DNA from: Acinetobacter phage 133 | Length of the DNA stretch: 64,000 bases | Sequence record: HM114315.1 | Strand: one strand, 5' to 3' | Part shown: positions 1,864-58,785 of the stretch, piece after piece | Layout: every line of letters starts with the position of its first letter | Position numbering within the stretch: position 1 is the stretch's first letter | Notes under the pieces: generated by a model | What the model saw: the letters and a program-made list of their open reading frames with translations, nothing else | Told to the model about the DNA's origin: nothing | The model's database searches: none | Translations under genes and position numbers: made by a program

Positions 1864-1935
1864 GGCGCCGTGAAGGACTCGAACCCTCGATGGCGGATTT
1901 GGAATCCGCAGTGTTTCCAACTACACTAACGACCC
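1864..1935 (-). tRNA. tRNA-Trp (anticodon CCA)
   Basis: Hand-folded cloverleaf: acceptor GGGTCGT/ACGGCGC, D-stem GTGT/ACAC, anticodon arm GCGGA-TTCCAAA-TCCGC, T-arm GAGGG-TTCGAGT-CCTTC. Confidence 0.6.
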
Positions 1936-1939
1936 TTAA

Positions 1940-2626
1940 TTATTTAAACATTTTTCGACCTTTAATCCAACCTTTCGGAATAGGGTCATTTTTATTTATT
2001 CGAGTAGATTTTCGCTCTTCTAAAGAGTGAATCCACATTTTACCAAACTGTGAATTTTTTTCGCCTTTCTGATGTTCTATTTCTGTAAAGGTTTTCTTGA
2101 CTTTTTCAATCGATTCAGGCTTATGTCTTCGTCCCGACCACGGGTGACCGTTTTTATCGAAAGCATCTTTTATTGAATTTGAAACAAGTTCTCTATACCC
2201 TGGGTTAGTCCACATTTTTATAGCAGATAAGCTCATATTAGAAATAAACTTTTCGTTATAGCCTGGTATTTCCAACCTTTTCCGCTGCCGTGCATTTCCA
2301 GCAAGACGTGCTCTTTTACTCATTTCTTGAGCGTCTTTATTCAGATGATCCCAACCGCCTTGTCCACCCAATTTAATATTGTAAGTATCAGAACGATCAA
2401 TAAAATCCTGGTCAACAATTAAAGATTCAATTTCAAACATCTCTTCTTCAGAATCGTGCATCATCAAAATATCTTTCTTGAAATTTTCGATACCGTGTTT
2501 TGAAATAGATCTTTTTAAAATTTTACCTGAGCCCATGTAGCCGTCTTCAAGATTTGCGGTCTTATGAACTCCGACATAAATTTTACCATTTATCAAGTTG
2601 GTAATCTTGTACGTGTAAAAATGCAT
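1940..2626 (-). CDS. segB: GIY-YIG homing endonuclease, SegB-like, embedded in the tRNA cluster
   Basis: N-terminal YTYKITNLINGKIYVGVHKT...YMGSG is the GIY-(10)-YIG motif. It sits between tRNA genes exactly as T4 segB does. Confidence 0.75.
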   Translation of the reverse strand: MHFYTYKITNLINGKIYVGVHKTANLEDGYMGSGKILKRSISKHGIENFKKDILMMHDSEEEMFEIESLIVDQDFIDRSDTYNIKLGGQGGWDHLNKDAQEMSKRARLAGNARQRKRLEIPGYNEKFISNMSLSAIKMWTNPGYRELVSNSIKDAFDKNGHPWSGRRHKPESIEKVKKTFTEIEHQKGEKNSQFGKMWIHSLEERKSTRINKNDPIPKGWIKGRKMFK

Positions 2627-2678
2627 GAGTATCCTCGAATTGTAACGTTACAAGGATATTTATACTCATGCAATAATT

Positions 2679-2754
2679 TGGTGGTAATTGGTGGACTCGA
2701 ACCACCGACCTACGGATTATGATTCCGCTGCTCTACCTACTGAGCTAAACTACC
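2679..2754 (-). tRNA. tRNA with CAT anticodon (Met or Ile2/lysidine)
   Basis: Acceptor GGTAGTT/AATTACC plus encoded CCA, D-arm GCTC-AGTAGGT-AGAGC, anticodon arm GCGGA-ATCATAA-TCCGT, T-arm GGTGG-TTCGAGT-CCACC. Confidence 0.6.
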
Positions 2755-2760
2755 GGAAGC

Positions 2761-2830
2761 GAGGACACGATTTGAACGTGCGCGTAAGAGGTTATGAGCC
2801 TCTCATTCTACCAGGCTGAAGTTACCTCGC
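2761..2830 (-). tRNA. tRNA with CAT anticodon (Met or Ile2)
   Basis: Acceptor GCGAGGT/(T)CCTCGC, anticodon arm AGAGG-CTCATAA-CCTCT, T-arm GCACG-TTCAAAT-CGTGT. Confidence 0.5.
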
Positions 2831-2937
2831 AATAATTTGGACGGGTTTTTGAATTTAAGTACGGACTGATTGGTCATGCTAAACTTAAATCCGTGGATTT
2901 CCTGCAATCCACATGCCATGTGCGCAATTGGCAATTT

Positions 2938-3011
2938 GGCAGACCCGACGGGTTTCGATCCCGCTACCTCCCGCGTGACAGGCGGGTGCTCTTCCGATTG
3001 AGCTACGAATC
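2938..3011 (-). tRNA. tRNA-Asp (GTC)
   Basis: Acceptor AGATTCG/CGGGTCT (two G-U pairs) plus G and CCA, D-arm GCTC-AATCGGA-AGAGC, anticodon arm CCCGC-CTGTCAC-GCGGG, T-arm GCGGG-ATCGAAA-CCCGT. Confidence 0.55.
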
Positions 3012-3018
3012 TATAATT

Positions 3019-3231
3019 TTACATCAAACATAAACTTGTAGCAACCCATTGATTTTGACGGGTCACATGATCAGTAGCGCTTGTTTCATTTGATACTCTA
3101 TGCCCAATTGGACTGGAAATATCTGGTTTTGATGAACGGTGCCCAGTTAAAATACCGGGTATTTTAACTGTTCGATTTGGATAACGAACTAGGCTAAAAT
3201 CTTTCTTGAGCTCGGATTCATATAAACTCAT
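3019..3231 (-). CDS. hypothetical small ORF (doubtful)
   Basis: 70-aa ORF between tRNAs with a weak ribosome-binding site. Confidence 0.2.
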   Translation of the reverse strand: MSLYESELKKDFSLVRYPNRTVKIPGILTGHRSSKPDISSPIGHRVSNETSATDHVTRQNQWVATSLCLM

Positions 3232-3250
3232 CTTATACTCACTTAAAAAA

Positions 3251-3324
3251 TGGAAGTCGCAAAAGGAATCGAACCTTTACTAACAGAGTCAAATTCTGTG
3301 GTGCTACCGTTACACCATGCGACA
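3251..3324 (-). tRNA. tRNA-Gln (TTG)
   Basis: D-stem GTGT/GCAC, anticodon arm ACAGA-ATTTGAC-TCTGT, T-arm AAAGG-TTCGATT-CCTTT, CCA encoded. Confidence 0.55.
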
Positions 3325-3416
3325 ATTATTAGTTTTTGATCTGTTGAACTATAACAACAGCTCGATGGTAAGTTCATCGAGTCTCAAGAAGTGTATTTCT
3401 ACACTTAGACTAAAAT

Positions 3417-3493
3417 TGGTCTCCCATGTTGGATTTGAACCAACGACATCTTCTTTCCAAAAGAAGTAGGCTACCAGACTGCCCTAATGAGAG
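3417..3493 (-). tRNA. tRNA-Pro (TGG)
   Basis: Acceptor CTCTCAT/ATGGGAG, D-arm GGGC-AGTCTGGTA-GCC, anticodon arm CTTCT-TTTGGAA-AGAAG, T-arm GTTGG-TTCAAAT-CCAAC, CCA encoded. Confidence 0.6.
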
Positions 3494-3499
3494 ATAAAA

Positions 3500-3575
3500 T
3501 GGTCGTCGAGGCTGGATTCGAACCAGCGACCACCGGATTATCGGTCCGATGCTCTACCAACTGAGCTACTCGACG
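3500..3575 (-). tRNA. tRNA-Ile (GAT)
   Basis: Acceptor CGTCGAG/CTCGACG, D-arm GCTC-AGTTGGT-AGAGC, anticodon arm TCGGA-CCGATAA-TCCGG, T-arm GCTGG-TTCGAAT-CCAGC, CCA encoded. Confidence 0.6.
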
Positions 3576-3820
3576 GTAATATGTACTTTATTGTCAATGC
3601 GTACTATTCGGAACTTGCCATGGGGCAAATAAAAAACATCATAAGACTTACCACAGTATAAAACGGGTTCACGTATAACTGGGGCATTTGAATATTGTTC
3701 TTCAATGCAGTTAAATCCATGATTACGAAGTTGTTGAACAACTTCAAGTGATGTTTTATGACAGTGTTTAATAACAAGGCCAGGTTTTGTTCTAAATAGA
3801 CCAAACATAAAAATACTCAC
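3566..3820 (-). CDS. hypothetical small ORF (doubtful)
   Basis: 84-aa ORF between tRNA-Ser and tRNA-Ile. Its 3' end overlaps the tRNA-Ile 5' end by about 10 nt. Confidence 0.3.
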   Translation of the reverse strand: MSIFMFGLFRTKPGLVIKHCHKTSLEVVQQLRNHGFNCIEEQYSNAPVIREPVLYCGKSYDVFYLPHGKFRIVRIDNKVHITVE

Positions 3821-3824
3821 AATA

Positions 3825-3915
3825 TGGAGGTAAGACTGGGATTCGAACCCAGGGACGCCCGAAAGCGTCAGTGGTTTTCAAGACCACCGCAATAAGCCAG
3901 ACTCTGCCACCTTAC
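3825..3915 (-). tRNA. tRNA-Ser (TGA), type II with long variable arm
   Basis: Acceptor GGTAAGG/TCTTACC, anticodon arm GTGGT-CTTGAAA-ACCAC, variable hairpin GACGC-TTTCGG-GCGTC, T-arm CCTGG-GTTCGAATC-CCAG, CCA encoded. Confidence 0.55.
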
Positions 3916-4223
3916 CATTATTAGCTAATTAAACCTCAACGAGGAAATCTTACGCTAGACAAGTTACCCTTCCCGGGATTGCCTAAACACGGCCTGGATT
4001 ATTAGTCCACGCTATAACGGATTTTACAAATTATGTCGGTTAATGATCATAAATCACTAAACGAAATAATCTAAATGTGCCTACCAGGAAAGCAAATTAC
4101 GTGCAAGCACAACCTGGTCATTGGTCACATACTGTTAGGGTTGCTCCAAACCGACTAAGGTTCGTAAGGCCCCAGATTGTGTTCATCATCGGCTGATCAA
4201 TGCCTAGAAACAATCTTAACAAT

Positions 4224-4299
4224 TGGCTCCCCAGGTACGGTTCGAACGTACGACCAACGCAGTAACAGTGCGTCGCTCTACCAACTGAGCTACTGAGGA
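4224..4299 (-). tRNA. tRNA-Asn (GTT)
   Basis: Acceptor TCCTCAG/CTGGGGA, D-arm GCTC-AGTTGGT-AGAGC, anticodon arm ACGCA-CTGTTAC-TGCGT, T-arm GTACG-TTCGAAC-CGTAC, CCA encoded. Confidence 0.6.
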
Positions 4300-4305
4300 A
4301 TAATC

Positions 4306-4381
4306 TGGTGCCGTCACTAGGATTCGAACCCAGGACCTGACGATTACAAATCGCCTGCTCTACCATCTGAGCTATAACGGC
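4306..4381 (-). tRNA. tRNA-Thr (TGT)
   Basis: Acceptor GCCGTTA/TGACGGC, D-arm GCTC-AGATGGT-AGAGC, anticodon arm GGCGA-TTTGTAA-TCGTC, T-arm CTGGG-TTCGAAT-CCTAG, CCA encoded. Confidence 0.6.
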
Positions 4382-4382
4382 A

Positions 4383-4458
4383 TGGTGTTCATACGGGGAT
4401 TTGAACCCCGGTTACCAACGTGAAAGGCTGGCGTCCTAGACCGCTGGACGATATGAAC
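4383..4458 (-). tRNA. tRNA-Glu (TTC)
   Basis: Acceptor GTTCATA/TATGAAC, D-arm GTCC-AGCGGTCTA-GGAC, anticodon arm CCAGC-CTTTCAC-GTTGG, T-loop TTCAAAT, CCA encoded. Confidence 0.55.
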
Positions 4459-4459
4459 A

Positions 4460-4543
4460 TGGCGAGTGTGGACCGAGTCGAACGGTCAGTGCTTGCGGCG
4501 GCGGATTTACAATCCGCTGGGGTTACCAATTTTCCTACACACT
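4460..4543 (-). tRNA. tRNA-Tyr (GTA), type II
   Basis: Acceptor GAGTGTG/CACACTC, anticodon arm GCGGA-TTGTAAA-TCCGC, long variable arm, T-loop TTCGACT, CCA encoded. Confidence 0.55.
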
Positions 4544-4571
4544 CAATATACGTTTATTTATAACGCAAAAA

Positions 4572-4647
4572 TGGACCCCCTCACAGGACTCGAACCTGTA
4601 TAAATCGCAATAGAACTACGATGCCTAATCCATTCGGCCAGAGAGGG
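4572..4647 (-). tRNA. tRNA-Arg (TCT)
   Basis: Acceptor CCCTCTC/GAGGGGG, D-arm GCC-GAATGGATTA-GGC, anticodon arm TCGTA-GTTCTAT-TGCGA, T-arm ACAGG-TTCGAGT-CCTGT, CCA encoded. Confidence 0.55.
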
Positions 4648-4743
4648 ATTATTAAGTTTAACCGCAATTTGGACAAGGGAAATAACGTACAGTTTGACCA
4701 CAACCTGAGCAATAATGCCCAATGGTAGAATAAATTTGATACT

Positions 4744-5091
4744 TCATTTTGATTTCCTTTTATTCCAATGACCTAAGTCTTTTATGTGAATAAGTGACTT
4801 AATTACGATAACGCCCGTGTCTTCGTAGTAGTTTCCGAAGTACGCAATGTGCTTTGACTTAGCGATAAAGGAGTTTTTCCCATATCGAGAGTCCCGCATA
4901 TTAACTTTACCCGGAGACATATGACTAGCCATATTAATTGTAGCAGTGGCGAAGTCATTGCGTAGAAAAACTACAGGATTAGTCAATTCATATTTTGACA
5001 TGAAAAGTTTGAAACGCTGAACGATTCGTTGTTTTGCATGACCTGAAAAGTGAACAGGAGCTCGACCGAAATTTGAAAACACTGGACTCAT
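4744..5091 (-). CDS. hypothetical protein
   Basis: 115-aa ORF inside the tRNA cluster, translationally coupled to the 5088-5363 ORF. Confidence 0.4.
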   Translation of the reverse strand: MSPVFSNFGRAPVHFSGHAKQRIVQRFKLFMSKYELTNPVVFLRNDFATATINMASHMSPGKVNMRDSRYGKNSFIAKSKHIAYFGNYYEDTGVIVIKSLIHIKDLGHWNKRKSK

Positions 5092-5363
5092 TCTAATTCT
5101 ACCAATTGTTTTCTTGTAATTTTCGCCGGTCGAAGCTTTAAAACTTTTTGACCTAATGCACCCGCATATATTACAACTAAAGAATGCGTGATATCTTCTA
5201 CAGTATAACGTACATTATCGGTGCAAATGTCATCAAGAGTATTCGCTTCGCGAAAGTCATCATCGGTTAAAACTAAACACGATGTACGTAAGTATTGTCG
5301 CTGTACTTCATTTAACATAATAAATTCCTCATAATATATCCGAGAGGGGAGCAATTGCAACAA
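5088..5363 (-). CDS. hypothetical protein
   Basis: 91-aa ORF whose stop/start (ATGA) overlaps the downstream gene. Confidence 0.4.
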   Translation of the reverse strand: MLQLLPSRIYYEEFIMLNEVQRQYLRTSCLVLTDDDFREANTLDDICTDNVRYTVEDITHSLVVIYAGALGQKVLKLRPAKITRKQLVELE

Positions 5364-5378
5364 GACTCTCGGCTAATT

Positions 5379-5467
5379 TTGGCGGAAAGAAGAGGACTCG
5401 AACCTCAACCGATTTCTCAGTCCACTCGCTTAGCAGGCGGTGCATGTCCCATGACAGTTTACTTTCC
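5379..5467 (-). tRNA. type II tRNA, probably tRNA-Ser (GCT)
   Basis: Acceptor GGAAAGT/TCTTTCC with one mismatch, T-arm GAGG-TTCGAGT-CCTC, CCA encoded, candidate anticodon loop CTGCTAA. The anticodon stem is weak, so the identity is uncertain. Confidence 0.4.
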
Positions 5468-5474
5468 ATAATTT

Positions 5475-5549
5475 TGGAGGTGTCAACTGGACTCGAACCA
5501 GTATCGACGCGGATTTGCAATCCGCCGTATGACCATTCTACCATGACAC
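5475..5549 (-). tRNA. tRNA-Cys (GCA)
   Basis: Acceptor GGTGTCA/TGACACC, anticodon arm GCGGA-TTGCAAA-TCCGC, T-arm ACTGG-TTCGAGT-CCAGT, CCA encoded. Confidence 0.6.
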
Positions 5550-5653
5550 CACGTAGAGGATTCAAACCTCTTAGCACTGTGCGGATTTACGTGAACCATT
5601 CTTTCAATGGAATCGAACCATATACGACCCAGGCAGCGCCTTCCACCTTGGTA

Positions 5654-5730
5654 TTTGGAGCGGTTGACGAGATTCGAACTCGCGACATCTGACTTGGAAG
5701 GACAGCACTCTACCATCTGAGTTACAACCG
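5654..5730 (-). tRNA. tRNA-Gly (TCC)
   Basis: Acceptor GCGGTTG/CAACCGC, D-arm ACTC-AGATGGT-AGAGT, anticodon arm CTGTC-CTTCCAA-GTCAG (one mismatch), T-arm GCGAG-TTCGAAT-CTCGT, CCA encoded. Confidence 0.6.
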
Positions 5731-5738
5731 CAATTAAT

Positions 5739-5814
5739 CTGGTGGGCCCAGCAGGACTCGAACCTGAAACCAACGGATTATGAGTCCGCTGCTCTGCCAA
5801 TTGAGCTATAGGCC
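5739..5814 (-). tRNA. tRNA with CAT anticodon (Met or Ile2)
   Basis: Acceptor GGGCCTA/TGGGCCC, D-arm GCTC-AATTGGC-AGAGC, anticodon arm GCGGA-CTCATAA-TCCGT, T-arm TCAGG-TTCGAGT-CCTGC, CCA encoded. Confidence 0.6.
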
Positions 5815-5820
5815 CTTGTT

Positions 5821-7118: not shown

Positions 7119-7187
7119 AACTAGATACTCACTTGGTATGAGGTTATAATATCATAAAAAACTCATTTGTACAACGCTTTGAAAAAA

Positions 7188-8537: not shown

Positions 8538-9101
8538 CTACCGATTATCAATTCTCTTTTGTGCATGTTCATGAATAGTGCCACGGTGTTTAACTGCGAT
8601 ACCGTTATATACAATTTCAAAATACTTATATTGAAATGTGGCCATACATGTAACTGACACATCAGATTCTTCGGTGTAGTTATATTCAATTTCACCTAGA
8701 TCTGAAATCCAGGCACCATAATAATGAATACTCATAATAATATTGGATTTGGTATTGTCCAAAATATGTAGAGTAATAAATTTTGGTAAAACACCTTCCT
8801 CCCATCCCTCGTTTTCAAGAGTGAGATAGTTATTAATAGATAGCATCCAACGATATAGTTCAACCCAAGTTTTTAAATTTTCATCGATGATGAAACGGCA
8901 TACCAAGGGGTCAAACTCAAAAGTCGATCCTGGTAATTTTGCTCGGCCTAGGCCGCGTGTACCGGTTGGAGTATCTGTAACTGGTATTCTAACACCTGGA
9001 ATCAAAGCAGATTGAACGTTGCCTGTAAAGGCCTCAGTTATTCCTGCATCTGGGACATCTAGTACAAAATTCGTTGTGTTGGTTAAATTCTTTAATGACA
9101 T
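8538..9101 (-). CDS. 3: gp3 tail completion / sheath stabiliser
   Basis: 187 aa. Position between gene 1 and gene 2 as in T4. Confidence 0.6.
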   Translation of the reverse strand: MSLKNLTNTTNFVLDVPDAGITEAFTGNVQSALIPGVRIPVTDTPTGTRGLGRAKLPGSTFEFDPLVCRFIIDENLKTWVELYRWMLSINNYLTLENEGWEEGVLPKFITLHILDNTKSNIIMSIHYYGAWISDLGEIEYNYTEESDVSVTCMATFQYKYFEIVYNGIAVKHRGTIHEHAQKRIDNR

Positions 9102-9124
9102 ACCTTTCGCTTCAATATTGTGCC

Positions 9125-9180
9125 CTTATAATAAAGCAACGCTTTGCCCCTTAGGACCATTACTTTAAGCCGGGATAGAT
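9125..9180 (+). repeat. repeat family copy A (about 56 bp)
   Basis: cttataataaagcaacgctttgcccc... shares 26 identical nt and then similar sequence with copy B. On the minus strand it reads TTGCTTTA, a MotA-box-like motif, 30 nt upstream of the gp3 ATG. Confidence 0.6.
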
Positions 9181-9240
9181 TAATAAATGTACAAATGAAT
9201 AAAAAATATTTTACACTCTCATTTGCATTGAAAAACTGAC

Positions 9241-9345
9241 GTTATAATAAAGCAACGCTTTGCCCCTCACCCTATTACTTTGGCCGCCGGTAGATATACA
9301 AAACCTACCAACGACCTTTATGGCGAAGCCGTGAGCTTGCGAACT
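9241..9345 (+). repeat. repeat family copy B (block 1 at 9241-9298 plus block 2 atggcgaagccgtgagcttgcgaact at 9320-9345)
   Basis: Near-identical to the inverted copy at 46277-46390 (block 1 differs by a single C insertion; block 2 is identical). Lies in the gp2-gp3 intergenic region. Confidence 0.65.
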
Positions 9346-10136
9346 TACTTTTTACCCCATACTTTCTGAGAAGAATAACGCTTACCTTTAGACATAAAGC
9401 TTTGTAACGGCATTAGTACAACATTTGACCAATCACTGGGTTTAATTTCAGTTATTGTTCCGACAATATGAGATGGTAGATAATTCTTAATCATCTTGTC
9501 TGCGCCAGGTAAATTTTTTACTTTAGACCAATCCACCTTCAACATTGTCTTGTTACTAATCACACTCGTATTGGAATACTTCAGAATACTCTCTAAAAAT
9601 TCCTGTCTAGCCTTTGGCGGCACGTAGTGCATGTTCAATCCCTGCATCAGAATAGTACCAGACTTTGGCGACTTAACAAACCCTAAACATACAATAAGCG
9701 GAAATCGGTCCCAATACGGTAATGTATCTTTATACTTTGCATCATATGCAAAAGCATATACTTTTCCAGACGCGGGCTTAGACACTTTATGGCCACGTAC
9801 AGCGTCTTTAATTGTTTTGTCGAACCATTTTTGAGATTTAGTATTTGATGCTGCACCGTCATTCTTGATCTTCTCTCGCACGGATTGTCGAAACGAGTTA
9901 ATCATAATCAGGTTTTTATCAGCCTGGGTCAGCCTATTTGTCGGTTTCTGTAATAGTTCGTCTGCCCGTACCGCCAATTTGATCTTAGTTTGGTATCTAG
10001 ACATTGACTTGGTAAACGTACTGTAGTTTATGCCCTTTGATTCGGCAAATACCTTACTGGACATGCCTTTCTTTTTAGCTTGTGCCAATTCAACTCCGAG
10101 GCGGATCCAGTCTGCCTCCTGTCTACTAATTGTCAT
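9345..10136 (-). CDS. 2: gp2 DNA end-protector protein
   Basis: 263 aa, basic. Position between gp3 and gp4 as in T4. Confidence 0.6.
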   Translation of the reverse strand: MTISRQEADWIRLGVELAQAKKKGMSSKVFAESKGINYSTFTKSMSRYQTKIKLAVRADELLQKPTNRLTQADKNLIMINSFRQSVREKIKNDGAASNTKSQKWFDKTIKDAVRGHKVSKPASGKVYAFAYDAKYKDTLPYWDRFPLIVCLGFVKSPKSGTILMQGLNMHYVPPKARQEFLESILKYSNTSVISNKTMLKVDWSKVKNLPGADKMIKNYLPSHIVGTITEIKPSDWSNVVLMPLQSFMSKGKRYSSQKVWGKK

Positions 10137-18600: not shown

Positions 18601-18692
18601 AGTTCCGTGCTTTGGTTGACGAACGATTGAAAGAAAATGTCGGCAACCCCCGCGATCCAGTTGATCCGACTCTTATTAATATTGGAGATTAA
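15618..18692 (+). CDS. 7: gp7 baseplate wedge initiator
   Basis: 1024 aa versus 1032 in T4. Coupled to gp6. Confidence 0.8.
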   Translation: MTVQAPTITSLTITKLSANDVQIRWDNVGSNFFYLVEVTETRDPLTGISWNQLPYTTEAEYFYSQLKPNTYYKMRVGVTAEGFTPSEWVETEEFQSFTQNAYTFETMGELNLITKFIQEKFVKNNQSYVDFNSDVVYAALMGESFQYSPHYEDISSIQNHILFENEYHEIQEDIQKVCTDIDRVYLMESNGILYLFERYQPIVKVSNDKGQNWKAVKLLNDRVGYPLSRTVFYQTSTTTYLLGLDRIFYGRQSTDVRWSADDVKFSSQDVTFAKVGDQLNLGYDVELFSSYARLPAALSKITESIASTEEYVYVVARDKVQRIKTQNAPTDTDPLSPTFGEKLFDSWTSNITGSPKAVCYKLDAVDGEVFALITGEVAQVGFDPRTSEILDSDLKGVYRLTGDTWTRIFGNTEEERYRIEVGYTSMSTDGNELFISSSNHRLTDEFIVPDPELSQKYPDVQAAVKSEFDQQYVHDKHYLMMSFRTGEALGWAEMKPGRMKYYAEPFFSYCKKSSTRCWITNSNRVLVVYNDITHAYPIDTFGERSPNRVMKETWKKGTFTAISPNIEFNNFNRYAAGVIFYKSSGELIAYYEFNYRVRDDVRIVWKPTNVFFSAYLQNQTREDPWVPDVNPNRVDPDLRPLLNKIIPDSYLLEDSNFEKFCEYYLQYISTGYGTQYNNLLNLIRNKYPKEEHSWEYMWGEVYKRNLYLDREKRDYVARFFETRKSDFYSTKGIEASYKFLFRLLYNEDVEIDIESNSGTEYDIIVESDNINEGIVGQTIYTESGRCNVTYMQRNYVKGKLQWRITIHNMLGRFLVGQEVKAERSTFEGTIVQGVRGKDLMTNNIDYINRSRSYYVMKIKSTLPTSRYREDILRFVHPVGFGFVGITLLTMFINAGLSLKHVETVINKYKTYRWDAGLPSVWPDRVAVLNAQDKIETDSITGEPVYAQHSNAGQPFPLPPNYDAENNNSIIGGQTPGERRKPMSPTFDQTAVTFSKFRALVDERLKENVGNPRDPVDPTLINIGD

Positions 18693-18693
18693 A

Positions 18694-19698
18694 ATGGCTG
18701 TAACAAGCTCAATTTACCGTGCGATTATTACTTCAAAGTTTCGCACGGAAAAGATGCATAATTTTTACCTAACTGTGGGCGACACAGAGGGTCTAAATTC
18801 ATTGTTTCTCACATTCGGCCGTGACACTCCATGGGCAGTGAATGAAAAAGATCCTGGGTTTGCTCCGCCGTATCCGGTGGACAACCCTCAAGGGGTGATG
18901 AATGTATGGTCCGATATGCTTGGTTGTGTAAAAATCAAGCAATCTTATTTGGACGCCGTTGTGCCTCGTAAGGATTGGGGCGATGTTCGTTATCCCAATT
19001 CTCGTACGTTCTTGGTGGGTGAAATTGTAGTAACCAATACCGCACCGTTTAACCGGGCACCTGGTGCGGCAGGATGGATGGTCTACAAAGTAGTTGACGT
19101 GCCTTCGCAGGGTGAGTGTTCAATCTCAACTATTTCTGGTAAAGAGGAATGTGTAAAACTTGGTGGGAAATGGACTCCAAGTGTAGAATCATTTATTATT
19201 CCTACTGGTACCGGTGACTCAGAGGGTTTAATAGACACAGGGGATGGATACGTATGGGAATATTTGTATGAAATTCCGGCCGATGTGTCGATTAACCGAT
19301 GCACAAATGAGTATATTGCTGTGCCTTGGCCTGACGAGTTAAAGGCAGATCCTGTGCGTTGGGGATATCAAAATAATTTGACTTGGCAACAAGATGATTA
19401 TGGATTGATCTTCCGAATTAAAGCAACTCAGATTCGGTTTAAAGCATATTTTGATTCTGTATATTTCCCAGAGGCCTCTGTTTTGGGTAACACTGGATTC
19501 CGTCAGATTAGCATTATTGTTAATCCGCTAGAGAAGAAAACTAAGCCAACCAACACAAACATAGTGGCTCGTAAAGATAACTATTTGGCGTCTGGGTTGG
19601 AACGACACTCAGGAGAGATGATCTATATTGAAAATCATCCACCAATTATCCGTGCTGTTGACCAGACGGAGGAAATAAATATCGTATTTAATTTCTAA
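18694..19698 (+). CDS. 8: gp8 baseplate wedge
   Basis: The true start is MAVTSSIYRAIITSKFRTEKM, which matches recalled T4 gp8 (MNDSSVIYRAIVTSKFRTEKM). This gives 334 aa. The ORF-track start at 18637 is an in-frame upstream extension. Confidence 0.85.
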   Translation: MAVTSSIYRAIITSKFRTEKMHNFYLTVGDTEGLNSLFLTFGRDTPWAVNEKDPGFAPPYPVDNPQGVMNVWSDMLGCVKIKQSYLDAVVPRKDWGDVRYPNSRTFLVGEIVVTNTAPFNRAPGAAGWMVYKVVDVPSQGECSISTISGKEECVKLGGKWTPSVESFIIPTGTGDSEGLIDTGDGYVWEYLYEIPADVSINRCTNEYIAVPWPDELKADPVRWGYQNNLTWQQDDYGLIFRIKATQIRFKAYFDSVYFPEASVLGNTGFRQISIIVNPLEKKTKPTNTNIVARKDNYLASGLERHSGEMIYIENHPPIIRAVDQTEEINIVFNF

Positions 19699-19699
19699 T

Positions 19700-19733
19700 A
19701 AAAAGGGCCTCTAAAAATGAGGCCCTTTTTATT
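19700..19733. terminator. bidirectional intrinsic terminator
   Basis: aaaaagggcctctaaaaatgaggcccttttta: a GC hairpin with A/T runs on both sides, serving gp8 on the plus strand and the embedded small gene on the minus strand. Confidence 0.6.
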
Positions 19734-19983
19734 AGAAAATTGCTTTGTATTTCATTTCATCATTTGCCACATTCATGATCATCATAAACACTTTGGCTTG
19801 ATCGTCAACACAGAAATTGTTTTTAATTGTTTCTCGTAATGAACCTGGTGTACATACCAGCTTGCTATTGAGTTTACGATCAATATCAAAATTGATATCT
19901 TGGAACTGATTGTTGACTTCAATCTGAACCGCATCCCCCAAAGAGTTTTTAAATGTAATAACTGAACTAATCATTTTTGCCAT
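19732..19983 (-). CDS. hypothetical small early protein embedded antisense in the late baseplate operon
   Basis: ORF with likely start at MAKMISSV. Has its own early-type promoter upstream and a terminator downstream. T4 has nothing between genes 8 and 9. Confidence 0.45.
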   Translation of the reverse strand: MAKMISSVITFKNSLGDAVQIEVNNQFQDINFDIDRKLNSKLVCTPGSLRETIKNNFCVDDQAKVFMMIMNVANDEMKYKAIF

Positions 19984-37188: not shown

Positions 37189-38754
37189 ATGACTATTAAA
37201 ACCAAAGCACAACTTGTGAAAGACTGGTCTAAACTTCTTGAAGCTGAAGGCGCACCGGAAATCATCGAAGGCAAAGAAGCCATTATGGCGAAGATCTTCG
37301 AAAACCAAGAAAAAGACACAAAATCAGATCCAATCTATCGTGACAAAGATATGATTGAATCGTTTGGCAGTTTCTTGGCAGAAGCGGAAATCGCTGGTGA
37401 TCATGGTTATAACCCAACGAATATTGCATCGGGTCAAGCATCTGGCGCGATCACGAACATCGGTCCATCAGTAATGGGTATGGTACGTCGTACAGTTCCT
37501 AACATGATGGCATTGGACGTATGTGGTACTCAGCCTTTGTCACAATCAAGCGGTCAATACTTTGCTCTTCGCGCAGTGTATAACAAAAACCCTCTTGCGG
37601 CTGGTGCTAAAGAAGCATTCCACCCAATGTATGCCCCTGACGCTATGTATTCAGGCCAAGGCGCTGCTCAAGCATTCACAGTAGTTGCTGCTGGTGCTAC
37701 TCTTGCAATCGGTGATATCCATCGTCATGAGTTTGTTGAAACTGGTACTGCGTTTATCCAAGCGACTGCTGCGATCACTATTGATGCTGCTGCGACAACT
37801 CCAGAATTGTTGGATGCTGAAATTCTTAAGCGTATGGAAGCGGGTGAAGTTGTTGAAATCGCTGAAGGTATGGCAACGTCGGTAGCCGAATTGCAAGAAA
37901 ACTATAATGGTTCAAGCAATAACCCATGGAATGAAATGTCGTTCCGTATTGACAAACAAACTGTTGAAGCCAAAGCTCGTCAATTGAAAGCATCATACTC
38001 AATTGAAGTTGCACAAGACCTTCGCGCAGTGCACGGTATGGACGCTGACTCAGAACTTGCTGGTATCCTTGCAACTGAAATCACTCTTGAAGTAAACCGT
38101 GAAATCGTTGACTGGATCAACTATTCTGCACAAGTTGGTAAAACTGGATTCACTCGTACTGAAGGTACAAAAGCAGGTATCTTTGACTTTGCAGACCCAA
38201 TCGATGTGAAAGGTGCTCGTTGGCAAGGTGAAGCTTTCAAAGCTTTCTTATTCCAAATCGATAAAGAAGCCGTTGAAGTTGGTCGTCAGACTGGCCGTGG
38301 TGCTGCAAACTTCATCATCGCATCGCGTAACGTTGTCAATGCTCTTGCTTCTGTAGACACTGGTGTAACTCCTGCTGCAGCTGGTATGGGTCGTAACTTC
38401 AACGTAGACACTGCGAAATCAGTATTTGCTGGTGTGTTGGGCGGCCGCTATAAAGTGTATATCGATCTGTATTCTCGTCAAGACTACTTCACTGTAGGTT
38501 ACAAGGGTACAACTGAACTGGACGCTGGTATCTACTACTTGCCGTATGTTGCATTGACTCCAATGCGTGCTCAAGATCCTGAGTCTTTCCACCCGATCTT
38601 AGGCTTCAAGACTCGCTATGCAGTTGGTATCAACCCAATGGCGTACAGTCAAGAGCAAGCTCCTGGTGGCCGTATCACTAACGGTATGCCAACGATCGCG
38701 AACTCTGCTGGTAAAAACTCGTACTTCCGCCGTGTTTGGGTAAAAGGTCTATAA
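37189..38754 (+). CDS. 23: gp23 major capsid protein
   Basis: 521 aa, identical in length to T4 gp23. Correct position. Confidence 0.9.
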   Translation: MTIKTKAQLVKDWSKLLEAEGAPEIIEGKEAIMAKIFENQEKDTKSDPIYRDKDMIESFGSFLAEAEIAGDHGYNPTNIASGQASGAITNIGPSVMGMVRRTVPNMMALDVCGTQPLSQSSGQYFALRAVYNKNPLAAGAKEAFHPMYAPDAMYSGQGAAQAFTVVAAGATLAIGDIHRHEFVETGTAFIQATAAITIDAAATTPELLDAEILKRMEAGEVVEIAEGMATSVAELQENYNGSSNNPWNEMSFRIDKQTVEAKARQLKASYSIEVAQDLRAVHGMDADSELAGILATEITLEVNREIVDWINYSAQVGKTGFTRTEGTKAGIFDFADPIDVKGARWQGEAFKAFLFQIDKEAVEVGRQTGRGAANFIIASRNVVNALASVDTGVTPAAAGMGRNFNVDTAKSVFAGVLGGRYKVYIDLYSRQDYFTVGYKGTTELDAGIYYLPYVALTPMRAQDPESFHPILGFKTRYAVGINPMAYSQEQAPGGRITNGMPTIANSAGKNSYFRRVWVKGL

Positions 38755-38759
38755 GATCT

Positions 38760-38798
38760 AAAAAAATAAAGGGACTCAATTGAGTCCCTTTTTTATTT
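38760..38798. terminator. bidirectional intrinsic terminator
   Basis: aaaaaaataaagggactcaattgagtcccttttttattt. Confidence 0.6.
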
Positions 38799-40372: not shown

Positions 40373-41641
40373 ATGAGCATTCATAATTTAATTCGTGAAT
40401 CAATGGGCAGTGTGGACGTAGAAAAAGGTCGTCCTTCATTGCTGGCATTGACTCGCGCAACAACAAAATTAATCTATACTGACCTAGTTGCGATTCAACC
40501 AACCGACAGCAACGTAGCCGCTTTATTCGGGGTTAAATATTTAAACCCGAACGATGAATTGTCATTCATTACAGGTGCAACATATTCTGGTGCTATTGGT
40601 ACAGAAGCACGTAAAACCCTGCCTGATATGACCGTCGGTATGACCCTGGCGAAAGGCGATTATTTCAAATACCAAGACGTTGTATTAAAGGCCCTTGTTG
40701 ATAATCCATTTGCAGGGACAACTGAAACTGACTTATTTGATATCTTGTCAGAAGCTATTGCTGGATCCGCTGTGCGCATGGTCCCTGATGCTGCTGAAAC
40801 CTCACACTTTGAAGTTGACAAACCTGATATTGCTGAAGCAGGGTTCACAATTGACAAGTGGACCGCCCCCGCCAAAACTCGTAAGTTACAAACTCAAATT
40901 ACTGTTGAATTGGCACAGGATTTAAATTCGAATGGGTTTGAACCTTCTGATATGTTAGAAGATATTCTGGCTACTCAAATGGCCGAAGAAATTAATAAAG
41001 ATGTAATGCAATCTATGATCACAGTGTCAAAACGTTTCAAGGTTAAAGGTATATCAGATAAGGGCGTATTAGATTTATCTGTAGTAGGTAGTTCAGTTGA
41101 ACAAGCTCGTGATTTATTCCGATATATCTGCGAAATGAATGCAGATATCCAACGCAATACTTCCTACTCGGCTACATTTGTGCAAGCGTCTTCTCGTGTC
41201 GCTGCCTTGCTTACATCGTCAGGTTGGATGCAGAAAAAAGATGATCAGCCAGAATCTGCGTATGGTGTATTGAATAATGGCCTTGTATTATACTGTGACA
41301 ACAACAGCCCAGTTGAATATGTGATTGTTGGCGTTAAAGATGAGTTTGGCGATGCAGAAACAATCGGCTCACTATTCTATGCTCCTTATGTGGATGGTCT
41401 TAGTGAAGAAGCTGATATTGTTGACCACATTGGCGCATACAAGGTTCTTCGGGACCCAGCATCATTACAACCAAAAATCATGCTTCAAGTCCGATATGCA
41501 CTATGTGTAAACCCTTACACTATGGGTCTTGATGACCCAACAGCTCGTAATATTGATGCATCAAACATGGACAACTTTGCAGGTCAATCGCAAATGTCAG
41601 TGTTGCTCGGGGTTAAGTTGCCAAAACTAGTGACAGTTTAA
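40373..41641 (+). CDS. 24: gp24 head vertex protein
   Basis: 422 aa versus 427 in T4. A gp23 paralog by position. Confidence 0.8.
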   Translation: MSIHNLIRESMGSVDVEKGRPSLLALTRATTKLIYTDLVAIQPTDSNVAALFGVKYLNPNDELSFITGATYSGAIGTEARKTLPDMTVGMTLAKGDYFKYQDVVLKALVDNPFAGTTETDLFDILSEAIAGSAVRMVPDAAETSHFEVDKPDIAEAGFTIDKWTAPAKTRKLQTQITVELAQDLNSNGFEPSDMLEDILATQMAEEINKDVMQSMITVSKRFKVKGISDKGVLDLSVVGSSVEQARDLFRYICEMNADIQRNTSYSATFVQASSRVAALLTSSGWMQKKDDQPESAYGVLNNGLVLYCDNNSPVEYVIVGVKDEFGDAETIGSLFYAPYVDGLSEEADIVDHIGAYKVLRDPASLQPKIMLQVRYALCVNPYTMGLDDPTARNIDASNMDNFAGQSQMSVLLGVKLPKLVTV

Positions 41642-41645
41642 AAAT

Positions 41646-41670
41646 AAAAAGGAGCCTAGGCTCCTTTTTT
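41646..41670. terminator. bidirectional intrinsic terminator
   Basis: aaaaaggagcctaggctcctttttt. Confidence 0.6.
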
Positions 41671-41751
41671 AATAAATAATACCAAATTCAATCAAGCCGT
41701 GGCCAATAATATAACCATTGCAGGATTCTTGAATTTCAACTCAGTATTACC

Positions 41752-42456: not shown

Positions 42457-43953
42457 ATGGACATTAAATTACACTTTTTAGATTATAGCCACGCCCAAAT
42501 TGAATGTGATGATGATGTTTACATGATGCTTCGTGATCACCTTTCTTTCTTTGCAGAAGGTTATCAATTCAACCCAAAATTTAAATATGGTCAATGGGAT
42601 GGAAAAATCCGTTTACTTGAATATGATCGCAAAGTCCCAATTGGACTAGTTCCACACGTTGCTAAATTTGCGTCCAATATGGATTACTCAATTTGGATCG
42701 ACTCAAATCTAAAATCAAAATCAAATTTATCTCGCGAACTATTTGATAAATGGTTGGGCAAACTTGAAATATATAGCGGCAATACTCGCATCCAACCACA
42801 CTGGTATCAAGCTGATGCAGTATACAAAGCAATCATTGAAAAACGTGCAATCCTGAATTTACCGACATCCGCAGGTAAATCATTAATCCAAGCATTGTTA
42901 ACTCGTTACTACTTACAAACAAAAGAAGGTAAAGTATTAATTCTGGTTCCTAACACTAGTTTGGTGACTCAAATGAAATCGGACCTTGTGGATTATCGTT
43001 TATTCCATAATGATGACATTGCAGAACTTCGGGGTGGTAAAAAACCTGGTGATGAAGCGGTAGTTATTGCAACTTGGCAATCGGCTATTAAACAACCGAT
43101 CGAGTGGTTTGAACAATTCGGAATGTTATTATGTGATGAGATGCACTTGGCCATTGGTAAATCTATTTCCACCATTATTAAAGCGTTAGTTCATTGCGAA
43201 TATAAAGCTGGTCTTACTGGATCACTGCGTGATGGCAAAGCAAACCTTATGCAATACCAAAGTTTATTTGGCGAAGTATTCAAACCTGTGACCACTACTC
43301 AATTAATGGAAGAAGGCCAAGTGACCAATCTGGATATTAATTGTATTATCTTAGAGTACTCAGACGCAGTTAAGCAGATTGCCAAAGGGGTGGATTATCA
43401 AAATGAAATTAAGCTGATTACTAGCTATAAGCCGCGCAATACTTTTATTTGTAATGTTGCATTGACTTTAGCCAAAAAAGGGGAAAATGCGTTCTTGATG
43501 TTTAAACACGTTGAACATGGGAAAGCCCTTTACGCGGAATTAAAAGCGAAATATGATAAGGTTTACTATGTATCAGGTGAGGTTGATGCTGACACGCGCG
43601 ATGCTTTAAAACGAATGGCTGAGACTGAGACTGGTGTTATTATTGTGGCCTCTTATGGAGTGTTCTCTACTGGTATTTCGGTCAAGAATTTACATCATGT
43701 TTTATTAGCCCATCCAGTTAAGTCTGCAGTTATTATCAAGCAAACTATTGGACGTGTGTTACGTAAACATGATTCAAAATCGGTAGCTAAGGTATGGGAT
43801 TTCATTGATGATTTTTCAACTGTCAAAGTGTCCAAGTCAACCGGCAAATCAAGTCGTTCTAATGCCAACTATGCATTGAAGCATGGATTAGAACGAATCA
43901 AGATTTACATCACTGAAAAGTTCAACTACACAACTAAGAAATTCAAGCTATAG
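42457..43953 (+). CDS. uvsW: UvsW DNA/RNA helicase (SF2, DEMH box)
   Basis: 498 aa versus 502 in T4. Motif I PTSAGKS and motif II LLCDEMH. Confidence 0.85.
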   Translation: MDIKLHFLDYSHAQIECDDDVYMMLRDHLSFFAEGYQFNPKFKYGQWDGKIRLLEYDRKVPIGLVPHVAKFASNMDYSIWIDSNLKSKSNLSRELFDKWLGKLEIYSGNTRIQPHWYQADAVYKAIIEKRAILNLPTSAGKSLIQALLTRYYLQTKEGKVLILVPNTSLVTQMKSDLVDYRLFHNDDIAELRGGKKPGDEAVVIATWQSAIKQPIEWFEQFGMLLCDEMHLAIGKSISTIIKALVHCEYKAGLTGSLRDGKANLMQYQSLFGEVFKPVTTTQLMEEGQVTNLDINCIILEYSDAVKQIAKGVDYQNEIKLITSYKPRNTFICNVALTLAKKGENAFLMFKHVEHGKALYAELKAKYDKVYYVSGEVDADTRDALKRMAETETGVIIVASYGVFSTGISVKNLHHVLLAHPVKSAVIIKQTIGRVLRKHDSKSVAKVWDFIDDFSTVKVSKSTGKSSRSNANYALKHGLERIKIYITEKFNYTTKKFKL

Positions 43954-43954
43954 A

Positions 43955-43981
43955 AAAAGGGACCTAGGTCCCTTTTGTTTT
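43955..43981. terminator. bidirectional intrinsic terminator
   Basis: aaaaagggacctaggtcccttttgtttt. Confidence 0.55.
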
Positions 43982-45173: not shown

Positions 45174-45604
45174 TATTTGATCCCCATATTTGAATTGTAC
45201 ACTTTGTATGCGGCGTCAAGCCACTGTTCTGGTGTAACTCGTTGCCCTACTTTTGTGGTAAAAAGCGTAATAACTTCACGCTGGGTAGGATTCATTTTAA
45301 CATCAGTTTCAATACAGAATGGATTATCCAGGGAGCGTTTAAATGTGTGATTTTGATGCAATTCTGCGCCAAACACTTCATTTAATATTTTTTGAATATG
45401 ATTACCCCAATTATTACCCTGATTAATAACTTTGCCAATTACGCAACTTGACCAAAGGTGCATGTTAAACACCACATCACTATCACGAAGTAGCTCAACT
45501 TTATCAATGATCATTTTCAGACCCTTTAAAAGGTCTGTCCGAGAACCGTACATTGTTGCGTAAGTAGTATTAAAGGAATAATTACCTTGAAATTGACTGA
45601 CCAT
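45173..45604 (-). CDS. hypothetical protein
   Basis: The ORF-track start at 45616 is a GTG codon. The first ATG (MVSQFQ) is at 45604, about 23 nt downstream of the early promoter. Confidence 0.45.
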   Translation of the reverse strand: MVSQFQGNYSFNTTYATMYGSRTDLLKGLKMIIDKVELLRDSDVVFNMHLWSSCVIGKVINQGNNWGNHIQKILNEVFGAELHQNHTFKRSLDNPFCIETDVKMNPTQREVITLFTTKVGQRVTPEQWLDAAYKVYNSNMGIK

Positions 45605-45634
45605 TTTATTTCTCACGTTGGTTGGAATAAGAGA

Positions 45635-45664
45635 ATATTAAACCGATAGAAATAAAAAGTAAAC
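45635..45664 (-). promoter_or_regulatory. T4-type early promoter (GTTTAC-N17-TTAATAT)
   Basis: Minus-strand reading gtttactttttatttctatcggtttaatat. Same architecture as the promoter at 234-265. Confidence 0.45.
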
Positions 45665-45678
45665 CCTAAAACGAAAAA

Positions 45679-45695
45679 AGGTCCGAGGACCTTAC
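45679..45695 (-). terminator. intrinsic terminator
   Basis: Minus-strand aaggtcctcggaccttttttcg. Confidence 0.45.
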
Positions 45696-45701
45696 ATCAA
45701 T

Positions 45702-45862
45702 AATTCAGTTTCTTGAAGTACCGATGCTGTATTTTCTGTGACTGGGATGTCTTGGACATGGTTTAGACATACTCCAGGGTGAACTGGGCCGTGCTCGGTT
45801 TCAACAACCAGGGCTTCATCAATTGGTGTTTTGCACACCGTACAAATAGTCTGTTGCATTAT
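45702..45862 (-). CDS. small Cys-containing protein (53 aa), candidate uvsY.-1-like
   Basis: MQQTICTVCKTPIDEALVVETEHGPVHPGVCLNHVQDIP... with a CxxC...C pattern and an AGGAAA ribosome-binding site. Absent from the ORF track (below 60 aa). Its start overlaps the uvsY stop. Confidence 0.35.
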
Positions 45863-46266
45863 TTTCCTGCCTCAAATTGTCTTAAGTCGATAATATTCTT
45901 AATGGCAAACCCTCTAGACTTAATGGCGTCCATCGCATTACCACAGAACTCAAGCATGATTGTGAAGTATTGAATCTTGGTTTCAACTGTTAGAATATCA
46001 GCGTCACCAGATAAAACTGTTTTCATCTCTGAACGTTCATATCGATCCATCGAAACTTCATCACCACGCCCTGAATAATAATCAAGTTTGGTTTTGGTAT
46101 GTTTTTTACGTTGTGCATCCAATGATAAAATGCTTTTACGTATATTAGAATATTTAGTAGACCACTTACAATACAAGTTAATATTTTCAGCGGCTTCTGT
46201 TTGTAACTGAGTCATATCAAGGACAAGGTCCTTCTTTAATTCAGCCTGTAAATCTTCAAGTGTCAT
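45859..46266 (-). CDS. uvsY: UvsY recombination mediator
   Basis: MTLEDLQAELKKD...KLDYYSGRGDE...SMDRYERSEMKTVLSGD...DAIKSRGFAIKNIIDLRQFEAGK is near-identical to recalled T4 UvsY. Confidence 0.9.
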   Translation of the reverse strand: MTLEDLQAELKKDLVLDMTQLQTEAAENINLYCKWSTKYSNIRKSILSLDAQRKKHTKTKLDYYSGRGDEVSMDRYERSEMKTVLSGDADILTVETKIQYFTIMLEFCGNAMDAIKSRGFAIKNIIDLRQFEAGK

Positions 46267-46276: not shown

Positions 46277-46390
46277 AGTTCGCAAGCTCACGGCTTCGCC
46301 ATTATGATTCTATTATTTAAAGCAAGTAGAGTATATCTACCGGCGGCCAAAGTAATAGGGGTGAGGGGCAAAGCGTTGCTTTATTATAAC
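46277..46390 (-). repeat. repeat family copy C (inverted relative to copies A and B)
   Basis: Reverse complement of 46332-46390 matches 9241-9298 with one C insertion. 46277-46302 is identical to block 2 at 9320-9345. Confidence 0.65.
46296..46330 (-). promoter_or_regulatory. MotA-dependent middle promoter upstream of uvsY (TTGCTTTA-N11-CATAAT)
   Basis: Minus-strand cTTGCTTTAaataatagaatCATAATggcgaag. In T4 the uvsY middle promoter is part of oriF. Confidence 0.5.
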
Positions 46391-46423
46391 GTTGAATTTC
46401 CAATGCGAATGAGCATAAATAGA

Positions 46424-46813
46424 TTACCCTTGATTTAATCTAAATTTAATTTGTTCCAATGTATCTGGGTTGTCCAGAATAGAGAAACGAACTTCGACTA
46501 TCACGGTATTTCTATCATACTCCGGAGTTACTGATACGCGAAGCTGAACCACACGTGGTTCATATGTTCGAATTGATGACATTATAACACGTTCCATTGT
46601 ATCTGCTACAAGAGGAGTCATGTTTTCAAATAATTGATCGGACAAATTACAACCAAATTCTGGATCAAATGGTCTAGAACCTTTGCGGGTTGTAACAATA
46701 CCTAAAATTGAATTTTTTACTGCACGCGCCCCGACAGATTTTGCCAAATCACGATCCCAATTCATTTCCATTCCAGGATTTAAATCCGTATACATTTGGT
46801 CTATATTACTCAT
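46424..46813 (-). CDS. 25: gp25 baseplate wedge (gpW/lysozyme-like)
   Basis: Start adjusted to MSNIDQMYTD. ITTRKGSRPFDPEFGCNLSDQLFENMTPL is near-identical to T4 gp25. Confidence 0.9.
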   Translation of the reverse strand: MSNIDQMYTDLNPGMEMNWDRDLAKSVGARAVKNSILGIVTTRKGSRPFDPEFGCNLSDQLFENMTPLVADTMERVIMSSIRTYEPRVVQLRVSVTPEYDRNTVIVEVRFSILDNPDTLEQIKFRLNQG

Positions 46814-58724: not shown

Positions 58725-58748
58725 AGCGTTCTCCGATTGAATTCCTTT

Positions 58749-58778: not shown

Positions 58779-58785
58779 AATAATG

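Follow-up and report, generated by a model that had tools for sequence, protein, structure and literature searches.

Acinetobacter phage 133 carries a short intergenic repeat, in at least three copies, within the 64,000-nucleotide (nt) stretch of its genome analyzed here (sequence record HM114315.1; hereafter the window). Two copies stand between genes gp3 and gp2, and an inverted third lies ~37 kb away, between gp25 and uvsY. On balance, we favor the view that the repeat is a promoter cassette specific to its lineage, most likely a middle promoter of the MotA/AsiA type with a conserved leader, and that its copies are kept alike by recombination. We infer that the promoter fires from its sequence and from its homology with the phage T4 promoter PuvsY. 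The pairing of the two sites extends to other genera: in 6 of 7 complete or near-complete T4-like genomes, the gene 3-2 cassette matches its own genome's uvsY-side cassette beyond the promoter consensus, weakly so in T4, and these gene 3-2 cassettes face against the flanking late genes. The remainder of the phage 133 genome probably holds additional copies.

Copies of the repeat

The three copies in the window are as follows.

9108-9180, + strand: copy A (of the P1 type defined below), directly beside the gp3 start codon and facing away from gp3
9218-9345, + strand: copy B, in the gp3-gp2 spacer, facing into gp2 in antisense
46277-46413, - strand: copy C, in the gp25-uvsY spacer, in the sense of uvsY

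Copies A and B form a clockwise tandem, antisense to the late genes gp2 and gp4, and copy C faces uvsY; together they fill the 243-bp gp3-gp2 spacer and the 157-bp gp25-uvsY spacer. The first-pass annotation of this DNA had copies A and B opening with an identical 26-mer. The match (TTATAATAAAGCAACGCTTTGCCCCT) is exact, at 9126-9151 and 9242-9267, one base away from the starts given there, and its reverse complement lies at 46364-46389. The same annotation described the inverted stretch 46277-46390 as reproducing the first block of copy B (block 1) with a single inserted C, and its second block (block 2) without change. Exact matches bear this out: 9270-9299 is 100% complementary to 46331-46360, block 2 (9320-9345) is 100% complementary to 46277-46302, and a C-run differs in length by a single base between copies B and C (CTCACCC-T versus CTCACCCCT). 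This one-base indel is a homopolymer strain polymorphism, the extra base also being present in copy B of five near-identical metagenomic contigs. The likeness between B and C extends ~25 nt further upstream than first noted (9218-9272 versus 46359-46413, 89%) and takes in a -30 box. Between the two blocks lie 20 nt in copy B and 28 nt in copy C, of unrelated sequence. Copy A is truncated and more diverged than B and C.

Significance was assessed by scanning 19-23-mers, with up to 3 mismatches, against 100 dinucleotide shuffles. Across the window only the three copies matched, with 0 matches expected by chance; self-alignment, the check that the annotation had proposed, recovered A, B, and C, with no chance matches in the shuffles. 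Megablast and blastn of both loci against 50,697 phage records, a set without phage 133 and its close relatives, gave no match, and a 56-nt consensus query of that set at expectation values (E) up to 10 returned chance matches in tape-measure genes only. Three exact-pattern scans of IMG/VR gave two unrelated G+C-rich matches and otherwise none, and one of JGI metagenomes gave six matches, all unrelated; a related-locus search of IMG/VR with UvsY and gp3 reached 62% identity at closest.

Look-alikes within the window at 54501-54516 and 7140-7180 were judged to be chance or too fragmentary. The second of these, in another spacer (+ strand), has fragments resembling parts of the element (TTATAAT...CATTTGTACAACGCTTTG) and shares an 11-mer, TGTACAAATGA, with the spacer between A and B (9187-9197, + strand), in opposite orientation. 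These fragments may be a scrambled relic, or chance.

Predicted promoter anatomy

The + strand of copies A and B, antisense to gp3/gp2, reads TTATAATAAAGCAACGC, as does the - strand of copy C, the sense of gp25/uvsY. On this strand each copy has an exact TATAAT 12 bp downstream of a -30 box with a GCTT or GCAT core; we call this promoter P1, and a second one in copy C P2. An invariant dyad, AAAGC-aac-GCTTT (AAAGCaacGCTTT), stands directly 3' of TATAAT, at the expected start site. In copies B and C it is followed by ~45 nt of conserved leader ending in a hairpin. The parts of each copy are listed below.

9108-9114, + strand: copy A -30 box, CGCTTCA (TCGCTTCA; TTCGCTTCA), 12-bp spacer
9127-9132, + strand: copy A -10 element, TATAAT
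9133-9145, + strand: copy A dyad, AAAGCAACGCTTT, then a diverged leader ending in GCCGGGATAGAT
9224-9230, + strand: copy B -30 box, TGCATTG (TTTGCATTG), 12-bp spacer
9243-9248, + strand: copy B -10 element, TATAAT
9249-9261, + strand: copy B dyad, then the conserved leader up to 9299
46407-46401, - strand: copy C P1 -30 box, CGCATTG (TTCGCATTG), 12-bp spacer
46388-46383, - strand: copy C P1 -10 element, TATAAT
46382-46370, - strand: copy C P1 dyad, whose leader then ends in a hairpin
46341-46325, - strand: copy C hairpin, GGTAGA/TCTACT
46324-46318, - strand: copy C P2 MotA box, canonical TGCTTTA (CTTGCTTTA), 11-bp spacer
46306-46301, - strand: copy C P2 -10 element, CATAAT, its first base off consensus

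The P1 boxes keep a GC(T/A)T core, with 1-2 mismatches to the T4 consensus TGCTTtA. Homologues of MotA and AsiA have been reported in T4-like Acinetobacter phages including 133 (PMC5795418), where their genes fall outside the window, and motA and asiA are annotated in Acinetobacter phage Acj9. Under the promoter reading, RNA polymerase would start 6-8 nt after each TATAAT, at middle times. P2 lies within the 28 nt unique to copy C, ~35 nt before the uvsY ATG, which is the position of PuvsY in T4; given this predicted promoter, block 2 (46302-46277) would be the uvsY 5' leader. Neither the gp3-gp2 nor the gp25-uvsY spacer contains the late promoter TATAAATA. A mini open reading frame (ORF) in block 2, ATGGCGAAGCCGTGA, was rejected; it lacks a Shine-Dalgarno sequence, and one relative does not have its ATG.

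The first-pass annotation had taken gcgTTGCTTTAttataa, on the gp3/gp2 strand, for the MotA box. Read that way, the conserved TTGCTTTA would be the box, and the copies would be counter-clockwise middle promoters directed towards gp3 (A and B) or antisense to uvsY (C), an arrangement that we regard as very unlikely. That TTGCTTTA is unchanged in every copy except A of the 85% relative introduced below (TTGCTTA) fits this arrangement, as does an AATATT in copy A, 12 bp downstream of the box and 20 nt before the gp3 ATG. Yet the bases ahead of TGCTTTA are C, G, and T, not A or T. Neither B nor C of phage 133 has a TAnnnT 11-13 bp downstream, so no promoter follows from that reading; copy A offers only AATATT or CAATAT, and the relatives' B and C copies have no TAnnnT at that distance either. 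The lone copy beside gp3 in the 80% relative is likewise without a correctly spaced -10, and the orthologous cassettes of AC4, Acj9, T4, and RB43 carry their -10 on the other strand. In the reading favored here, TTGCTTTA belongs to the invariant dyad at the predicted start site, as the reverse complement of its first half.

Close and distant relatives of phage 133

Metagenomic contigs of relatives were recovered by exact-protein look-ups; they include the same species as well as relatives with UvsY 85%, 80%, and 72% identical, named here by these values. The 80% and 85% relatives have the same arrangement as phage 133, and TATAAT is exact in their copies. A GCTT or GCAT box lies 12-13 bp upstream of it in their B- and C-type copies, for example TTTGCTTTG-12-TATAAT (the number is the spacer in bp); the A copy of the 85% relative has a weak box, GCCTCGA, at 11 bp.

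The 80% relative, for which both loci come from one sample, has TATAATAAAGCAACGCTTTCC after TTTGCTTTG-12 in the gp2-gp3 spacer and after TTTGCATCA-13 upstream of uvsY. At both sites, which are mutually inverted, there follow a GGGCAAGCCC hairpin and a second promoter, TTTGCTTTA-12-TATAAT, the hairpin together with the following TTTTGCTTT overlapping the box of that second promoter. The gp3-gp2 spacer holds 2 copies in phage 133, in Acj9, and in the 85% relative (A and B, arranged in tandem) and 1 copy in the 80% relative. Many Logan contigs of relatives end inside the repeat, which is what a repeated segment should produce.

In a distant relative (L027, gp3 69% identical), the 522-bp gp2-gp3 spacer (1979-2500) consists of two ~240-bp tandem repeats, unrelated to the phage 133 cassette; each unit contains GCTTTTGA-11-TACAAT, clockwise, plus two small hairpins.

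The same pairing across T4-like genera

The gp3-gp2 spacer of each phage was compared by BLAST with ~49 kb of its own genome, with the spacer itself masked. Matches to the uvsY-side spacer are listed below.

AC4: best match is the uvsY-side spacer, inverted; 97 nt, 91%, E 1e-29
Acj9: best match 56 nt, 95%, E 9e-16; two tandem cassettes per site, with the top four matches all in the gp25-downstream spacer
RB43: best match 131 nt, 82%, E 4e-30; direct, with the cassette still facing uvsY
T4: best match is the PuvsY region, inverted; GTGGTATAATGnnTCTAAGTCC, 24/29 (29 nt, 83%), E 0.002
Aeromonas 31.2: second-best match 70 nt, 91%, inverted; an extra copy lies between wac and gp13

The match in RB43 is direct because the rnlB...uvsY block is inverted in that phage. 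The cassette sequences are unrelated between genera, except that the promoter cores of 133 and AC4 align (TGCATTGaaaaactgacgtTATAAT versus TGCTTTAtaaaaatttgatgtTATAAT), the AC4 box being the canonical TGCTTTA. The number of places also varies: the AC4-type cassette occupies 5-6 per Lazarusvirus genome, Acj9 has another one, in the rnh|34 spacer, and the Aeromonas 31/44RR cassette, annotated in GenBank as "repeatA," occupies 6, which in phage 31 are near rIIA, upstream of gp55, gp3-gp2, wac-gp13, gp25-uvsY, and gp35-gp36. In T4, the gene 3-2 spacer carries the upstream box ATAATGCTT(T/C)A in register and reads TGCTTTA-13-TATAAT, clockwise, at ~75,968-75,993 on the + strand (NC_000866), antisense to gene 2. 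This site is absent from the table of identified middle promoters, which lists a T4 promoter named P1 at 75,393 and then PrnlB at 109,763 (PMC2988021).

In AC4 (L031, 40207-40411) and Acj9 (L042, 46876-47121), both Twarogvirinae, no uvsY is annotated downstream of gp25, and the cassette faces small uvsY.-2-like ORFs. Aeromonas 31.2 (L033, 2968-5315) carries gp5 and gp53 on the - strand, in the opposite orientation to T4 and 133.

The depth of this pairing bears on another account, in which only copy C is functional, as the promoter region of uvsY, and copies A and B are a non-functional ectopic duplicate, made by illegitimate or short-homology recombination and held similar by occasional gene conversion. 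The truncation and divergence of copy A suit a remnant, as do the failure of block 2 to be kept alike in the 80% relative and the state of copy B, where the second promoter core is gone and the block 2 leader remains, with no gene behind it. Over such depth, however, one would not expect a neutral remnant to keep its place and orientation: a clockwise gp3-gp2 cassette matching the uvsY side occurs in 133, the 80% and 85% relatives, AC4, Acj9, 31.2, RB43, and (weakly) T4, despite unrelated sequences between genera, and TATAAT and the dyad are exact in every copy. We judge the remnant account unlikely.

Several observations nevertheless count against a promoter cassette kept alike by recombination. 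The P1 -30 boxes (TGCATTG, CGCATTG, and CGCTTCA) deviate from TGCTTtA. P1 is not among the promoters called by a simple sigma-70 scan, because it lacks a TTGACA-like -35 region at a spacing of 16-18 bp. Sites combining a MotA box with TAnnnT are not enriched in the window, which is mostly late genes (0 strict; 5 relaxed versus ~10 expected). No gene is an obvious target of copies A and B, whose predicted transcripts run antisense to gp2 and gp4; their product would be an anti-late transcript. In STP4-a the likeness between the two sites stays at the level of the consensus (TGCTTTT-13-TATAATG and GCTTTTA-13-TATAATG). Finally, identity within genomes (133, 89%; relative, 84%) is little above the 78-83% between genomes (133 versus the 80% relative), so homogenization is clear only at the between-genus scale.

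Relation to known cassettes

T4-like phages carry repeats, termed PeSLs and PmSLs (promoter-early and promoter-middle stem-loops), that combine a promoter with a stem-loop, are nearly the same throughout a genome, and bring about the shuffling of modules (PMC2839356, Arbiol et al. 2010; PMC4122927, Comeau et al. 2014). This is the closest described class, and we regard the phage 133 cassette as probably working like the PmSL type, though not as a strict member of the class. It is a short intergenic repeat, alike within a genome and differing between lineages, and may, as these elements do, join a promoter to a stem-loop; recombination or gene conversion would maintain the likeness of its copies, as has been suggested for PeSL/PmSL cassettes. 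A PmSL of phage nt-1, similarly, has a TGCTT Mot box properly spaced from its -10 (PMC4122927). A further likeness may be that the gp3-gp2 spacer is insertion-prone in relatives, as the homing endonuclease of AC4 and ORF200w of RB43 attest. The differences concern number, place, and build. PeSLs number ~50 per genome, mostly in hyperplastic regions upstream of ORFans (PMC2839356), whereas the 133 family has 3 copies in 64 kb, all between conserved core genes, and two of the sites occupied by the 133-type family are positionally conserved across genera. The stem-loop of a PeSL lies within or touches the promoter (PMC2839356), whereas the 133 hairpin stands ~45 nt downstream of the -10. No terminator was called by the scan at the cassette hairpin, and there is no U-run.

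The gp3-gp2 spacer is an insertion hotspot. In AC4 (L031, 761-1429), the homing endonuclease gene lies between the cassette and gp2; in RB43 (L041, NC_007023), the 202-aa ORF200w runs clockwise in the spacer behind the cassette, and similar terminators (53 nt, 85%) follow ORF200w and the uvsY operon. STP4-a (L032, 2032-2784) has a homing endonuclease gene between gp2 and gp4.

A second repeat family in the window resembles the classical PeSL more closely. It lies on the - strand at 205-300 and 45604-45699, with ~65 nt alike, and more weakly at 58724-58812 and 60101-60165. The unit comprises a G+C-rich terminator hairpin (AAGGTCC...GGACCTT) with TTTTTCGTTTTAGGGTTTAC-N18-TAATAT behind it, a terminator plus early promoter in the PeSL manner. 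From the first pair it follows that cassette-type regulatory repeats exist in phage 133.

The repeatA element of phages 31 and 44RR2.8t (AY962392, AY375531) is a parallel in placement. It too is multi-copy, intergenic, and ~70-100 nt long, containing TATATAAT, and has one copy in gp3-gp2 and one, inverted, in gp25-uvsY. It differs in sequence, which is unrelated to the 133 cassette, in being palindromic around the -10, and in its six mapped copies.

PuvsY of T4, a MotA-dependent middle promoter that is also the promoter of oriF, lies as copy C does in the gp25-uvsY spacer, in the sense of uvsY. Its AATGCTTCA-13-TATAAT (PMC2988021) finds its counterpart in P2 of copy C, a TGCTTTA with a -10 upstream of uvsY. 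T4 has one promoter in a 76-bp spacer, whereas phage 133 has two in 157 bp, the upstream one (P1) being the repeated one. The leaders in 133, unlike that of PuvsY, are not A+T-rich.

Possible inversion of the late module

The first-pass annotation had also suggested that the inverted copies act as a recombination substrate, inverting the 37-kb late module or delimiting a module for exchange. The ingredients are present: 55, 30, and 26 nt of near-identity, inverted, in a phage with very active homologous recombination, and PeSL cassettes are documented recombination points (PMC2839356). One inversion in RB43 did end in the uvsY-promoter spacer, but its other end adjoins gene 24 and not the gp3-gp2 spacer. 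All contigs spanning a copy (five of near-identical strains across copy B, and two of a relative) have the reference arrangement, and gp3/gp2 and gp25 are in reference orientation in 6 of 6 complete genomes (T4, AC4, Acj9, STP4-a, 31.2, and RB43). No inverted isomer was thus found in the spanning contigs or in the six genomes, nor was a recombinant junction at the copies seen among the relatives' contigs and genomes compared, and we hold this suggestion to be extremely improbable.

The RB43 inversion covers 103.3-153 kb, where rnlB...hoc-inh-uvsW-uvsY is inverted relative to T4 and gene 24 is followed directly by uvsY, on the + strand.

A possible structured RNA

Alternatively, block 1 of copies B and C might pair with block 2 around an inner hairpin, the repeat then encoding a small structured RNA or an RNA element acting in cis. 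Block 1 of phage 133 (AAGCAACGCTTTGCC) has 14 possible pairs with block 2, and the inner hairpin is found in both B and C, even though its 3' arm falls in the non-homologous stretch. On that strand, however, z-scores reach only -1.9. Rfam searches gave tRNAs alone at the gathering score and no credible match at E up to 10, and RNAalifold, applied to the 133 copies together with those of the relative, recovered the invariant 5-bp dyad only, with no covariation. Block 2 is not conserved in the relative, and no terminator is predicted. The helix between block 1 and block 2 is specific to 133, with no support in relatives; a structured RNA gene was rejected, and we consider an RNA element of any kind quite improbable.

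A hairpin of copy B at 9282-9316, on the - strand (that of the late gp2-gp3 mRNA), has 14 pairs and is much weaker on the + strand because four of them are G-U; the 110-nt segment containing it has a z-score of -4.2 on the - strand. The hairpin of copy C has 6 pairs.

Possible replication origins

The cassettes might be promoters of R-loop origins of the type of T4 oriF. The copy on the uvsY side would then correspond to oriF and those in gp3-gp2 to a second, clockwise origin, and forks from the two would converge on the late-gene block. In T4, oriF consists of the PuvsY promoter and a downstream unwinding element, and oriE, oriF, and oriG lie at strand-switch regions (PMC3016281). Several cassette copies similarly lie ~1 kb from strand-switch points (gp4|gp53 and gp26|gp51 in the window, rnh|34 in Acj9, and gp35-gp36 in phage 31), and the PuvsY-like site of T4 gp3-gp2 is clockwise and 3.3 kb from the annotated oriE. 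Against this, no middle promoter is near oriE, which uses an early promoter (PMC3016281).

The downstream base composition also speaks against origins. A+T over +1 to +50 is 48-50% for P1 of copies B and C, 60% for that of copy A, and 58% for P2, with a window average of 60%; for PuvsY the values are 70% versus 64% in T4. With 48-60% against an average of 60%, phage 133 therefore lacks an A+T-rich unwinding element, and its transcript would be rich in C. To our knowledge, T4 plasmid screens recovered only ori(uvsY) and ori(34). The copies of phage 31 upstream of gp55, near rIIA, and in wac-gp13 fit ordinary promoters better. We see an origin function as distinctly unlikely. The annotation's alternative of duplicated middle-promoter or origin cassettes survives in its first half, as a promoter cassette on the other strand; its second half is weakened by the 50 nt downstream, which are richer in G+C than the window average.

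A related and more general proposal, which we also regard as unlikely, is that T4-like phages keep a few homogenized "anti-late" cassettes ~1 kb from strand switches (gene 3-2, upstream of uvsY, and rnh|34 or 35-36, the neighborhoods of oriE, oriF, and oriG), as R-loop origin promoters or as entry points for late transcription coupled to replication. If this were true, the PuvsY-like promoter of T4 gene 3-2 would be a previously unrecognized component of initiation in the oriE region.

Genomic setting

Acinetobacter phage 133, which infects A. johnsonii, is T4-like and has a genome of 159.8 kb (HM114315; PMC5795418). The genes that flank the copies are as follows.

8538-9101, - strand: gp3 (tail completion/sheath stabilizer), a 187-aa ORF 100% identical to phage 133 gp3, with its start codon at 9099-9101
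9345-10136, - strand: gp2 (DNA end protector), flanking copy B, its stop codon abutting block 2
45859-46266, - strand: uvsY, downstream of copy C, with its ATG at 46266
46424-46813, - strand: gp25 (baseplate wedge), upstream of copy C

The window follows the gene order of T4: after a tRNA cluster and gp1-like genes come gp3, gp2, and gp4 on the - strand, and gp53 and gp5 lie on the + strand from 10651; uvsY, gp25, and gp26 are on the - strand and are followed by gp51 and gp27 on the + strand. The tRNA cluster (1864-5815, - strand) has 15 genes at the Rfam gathering score; the literature count for phage 133 is 16 tRNAs.

A 43-nt inverted repeat at 19669-19761, around GAGGCCC/GGGCCTC, forms a bidirectional terminator-like palindrome. 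It adjoins an ORF at 19732-19983 (- strand), inside a stretch (18692-19732) without a gene by a crude ATG-only ORF call. Further G+C hairpins of this kind lie at 38754-38793, 41641-41680, 43953-43980, and 55981-56010.

Implications

For phage 133, the cassette places two or three candidate promoters that had not been annotated and explains why its assemblies and those of its relatives break at two fixed points. More widely, the recurrence of the pairing implies a shared constraint, or ongoing gene conversion, at two sites ~37 kb apart. A further prediction from the pairing is a transcript, made at middle times, that runs antisense across genes 2 and 4.

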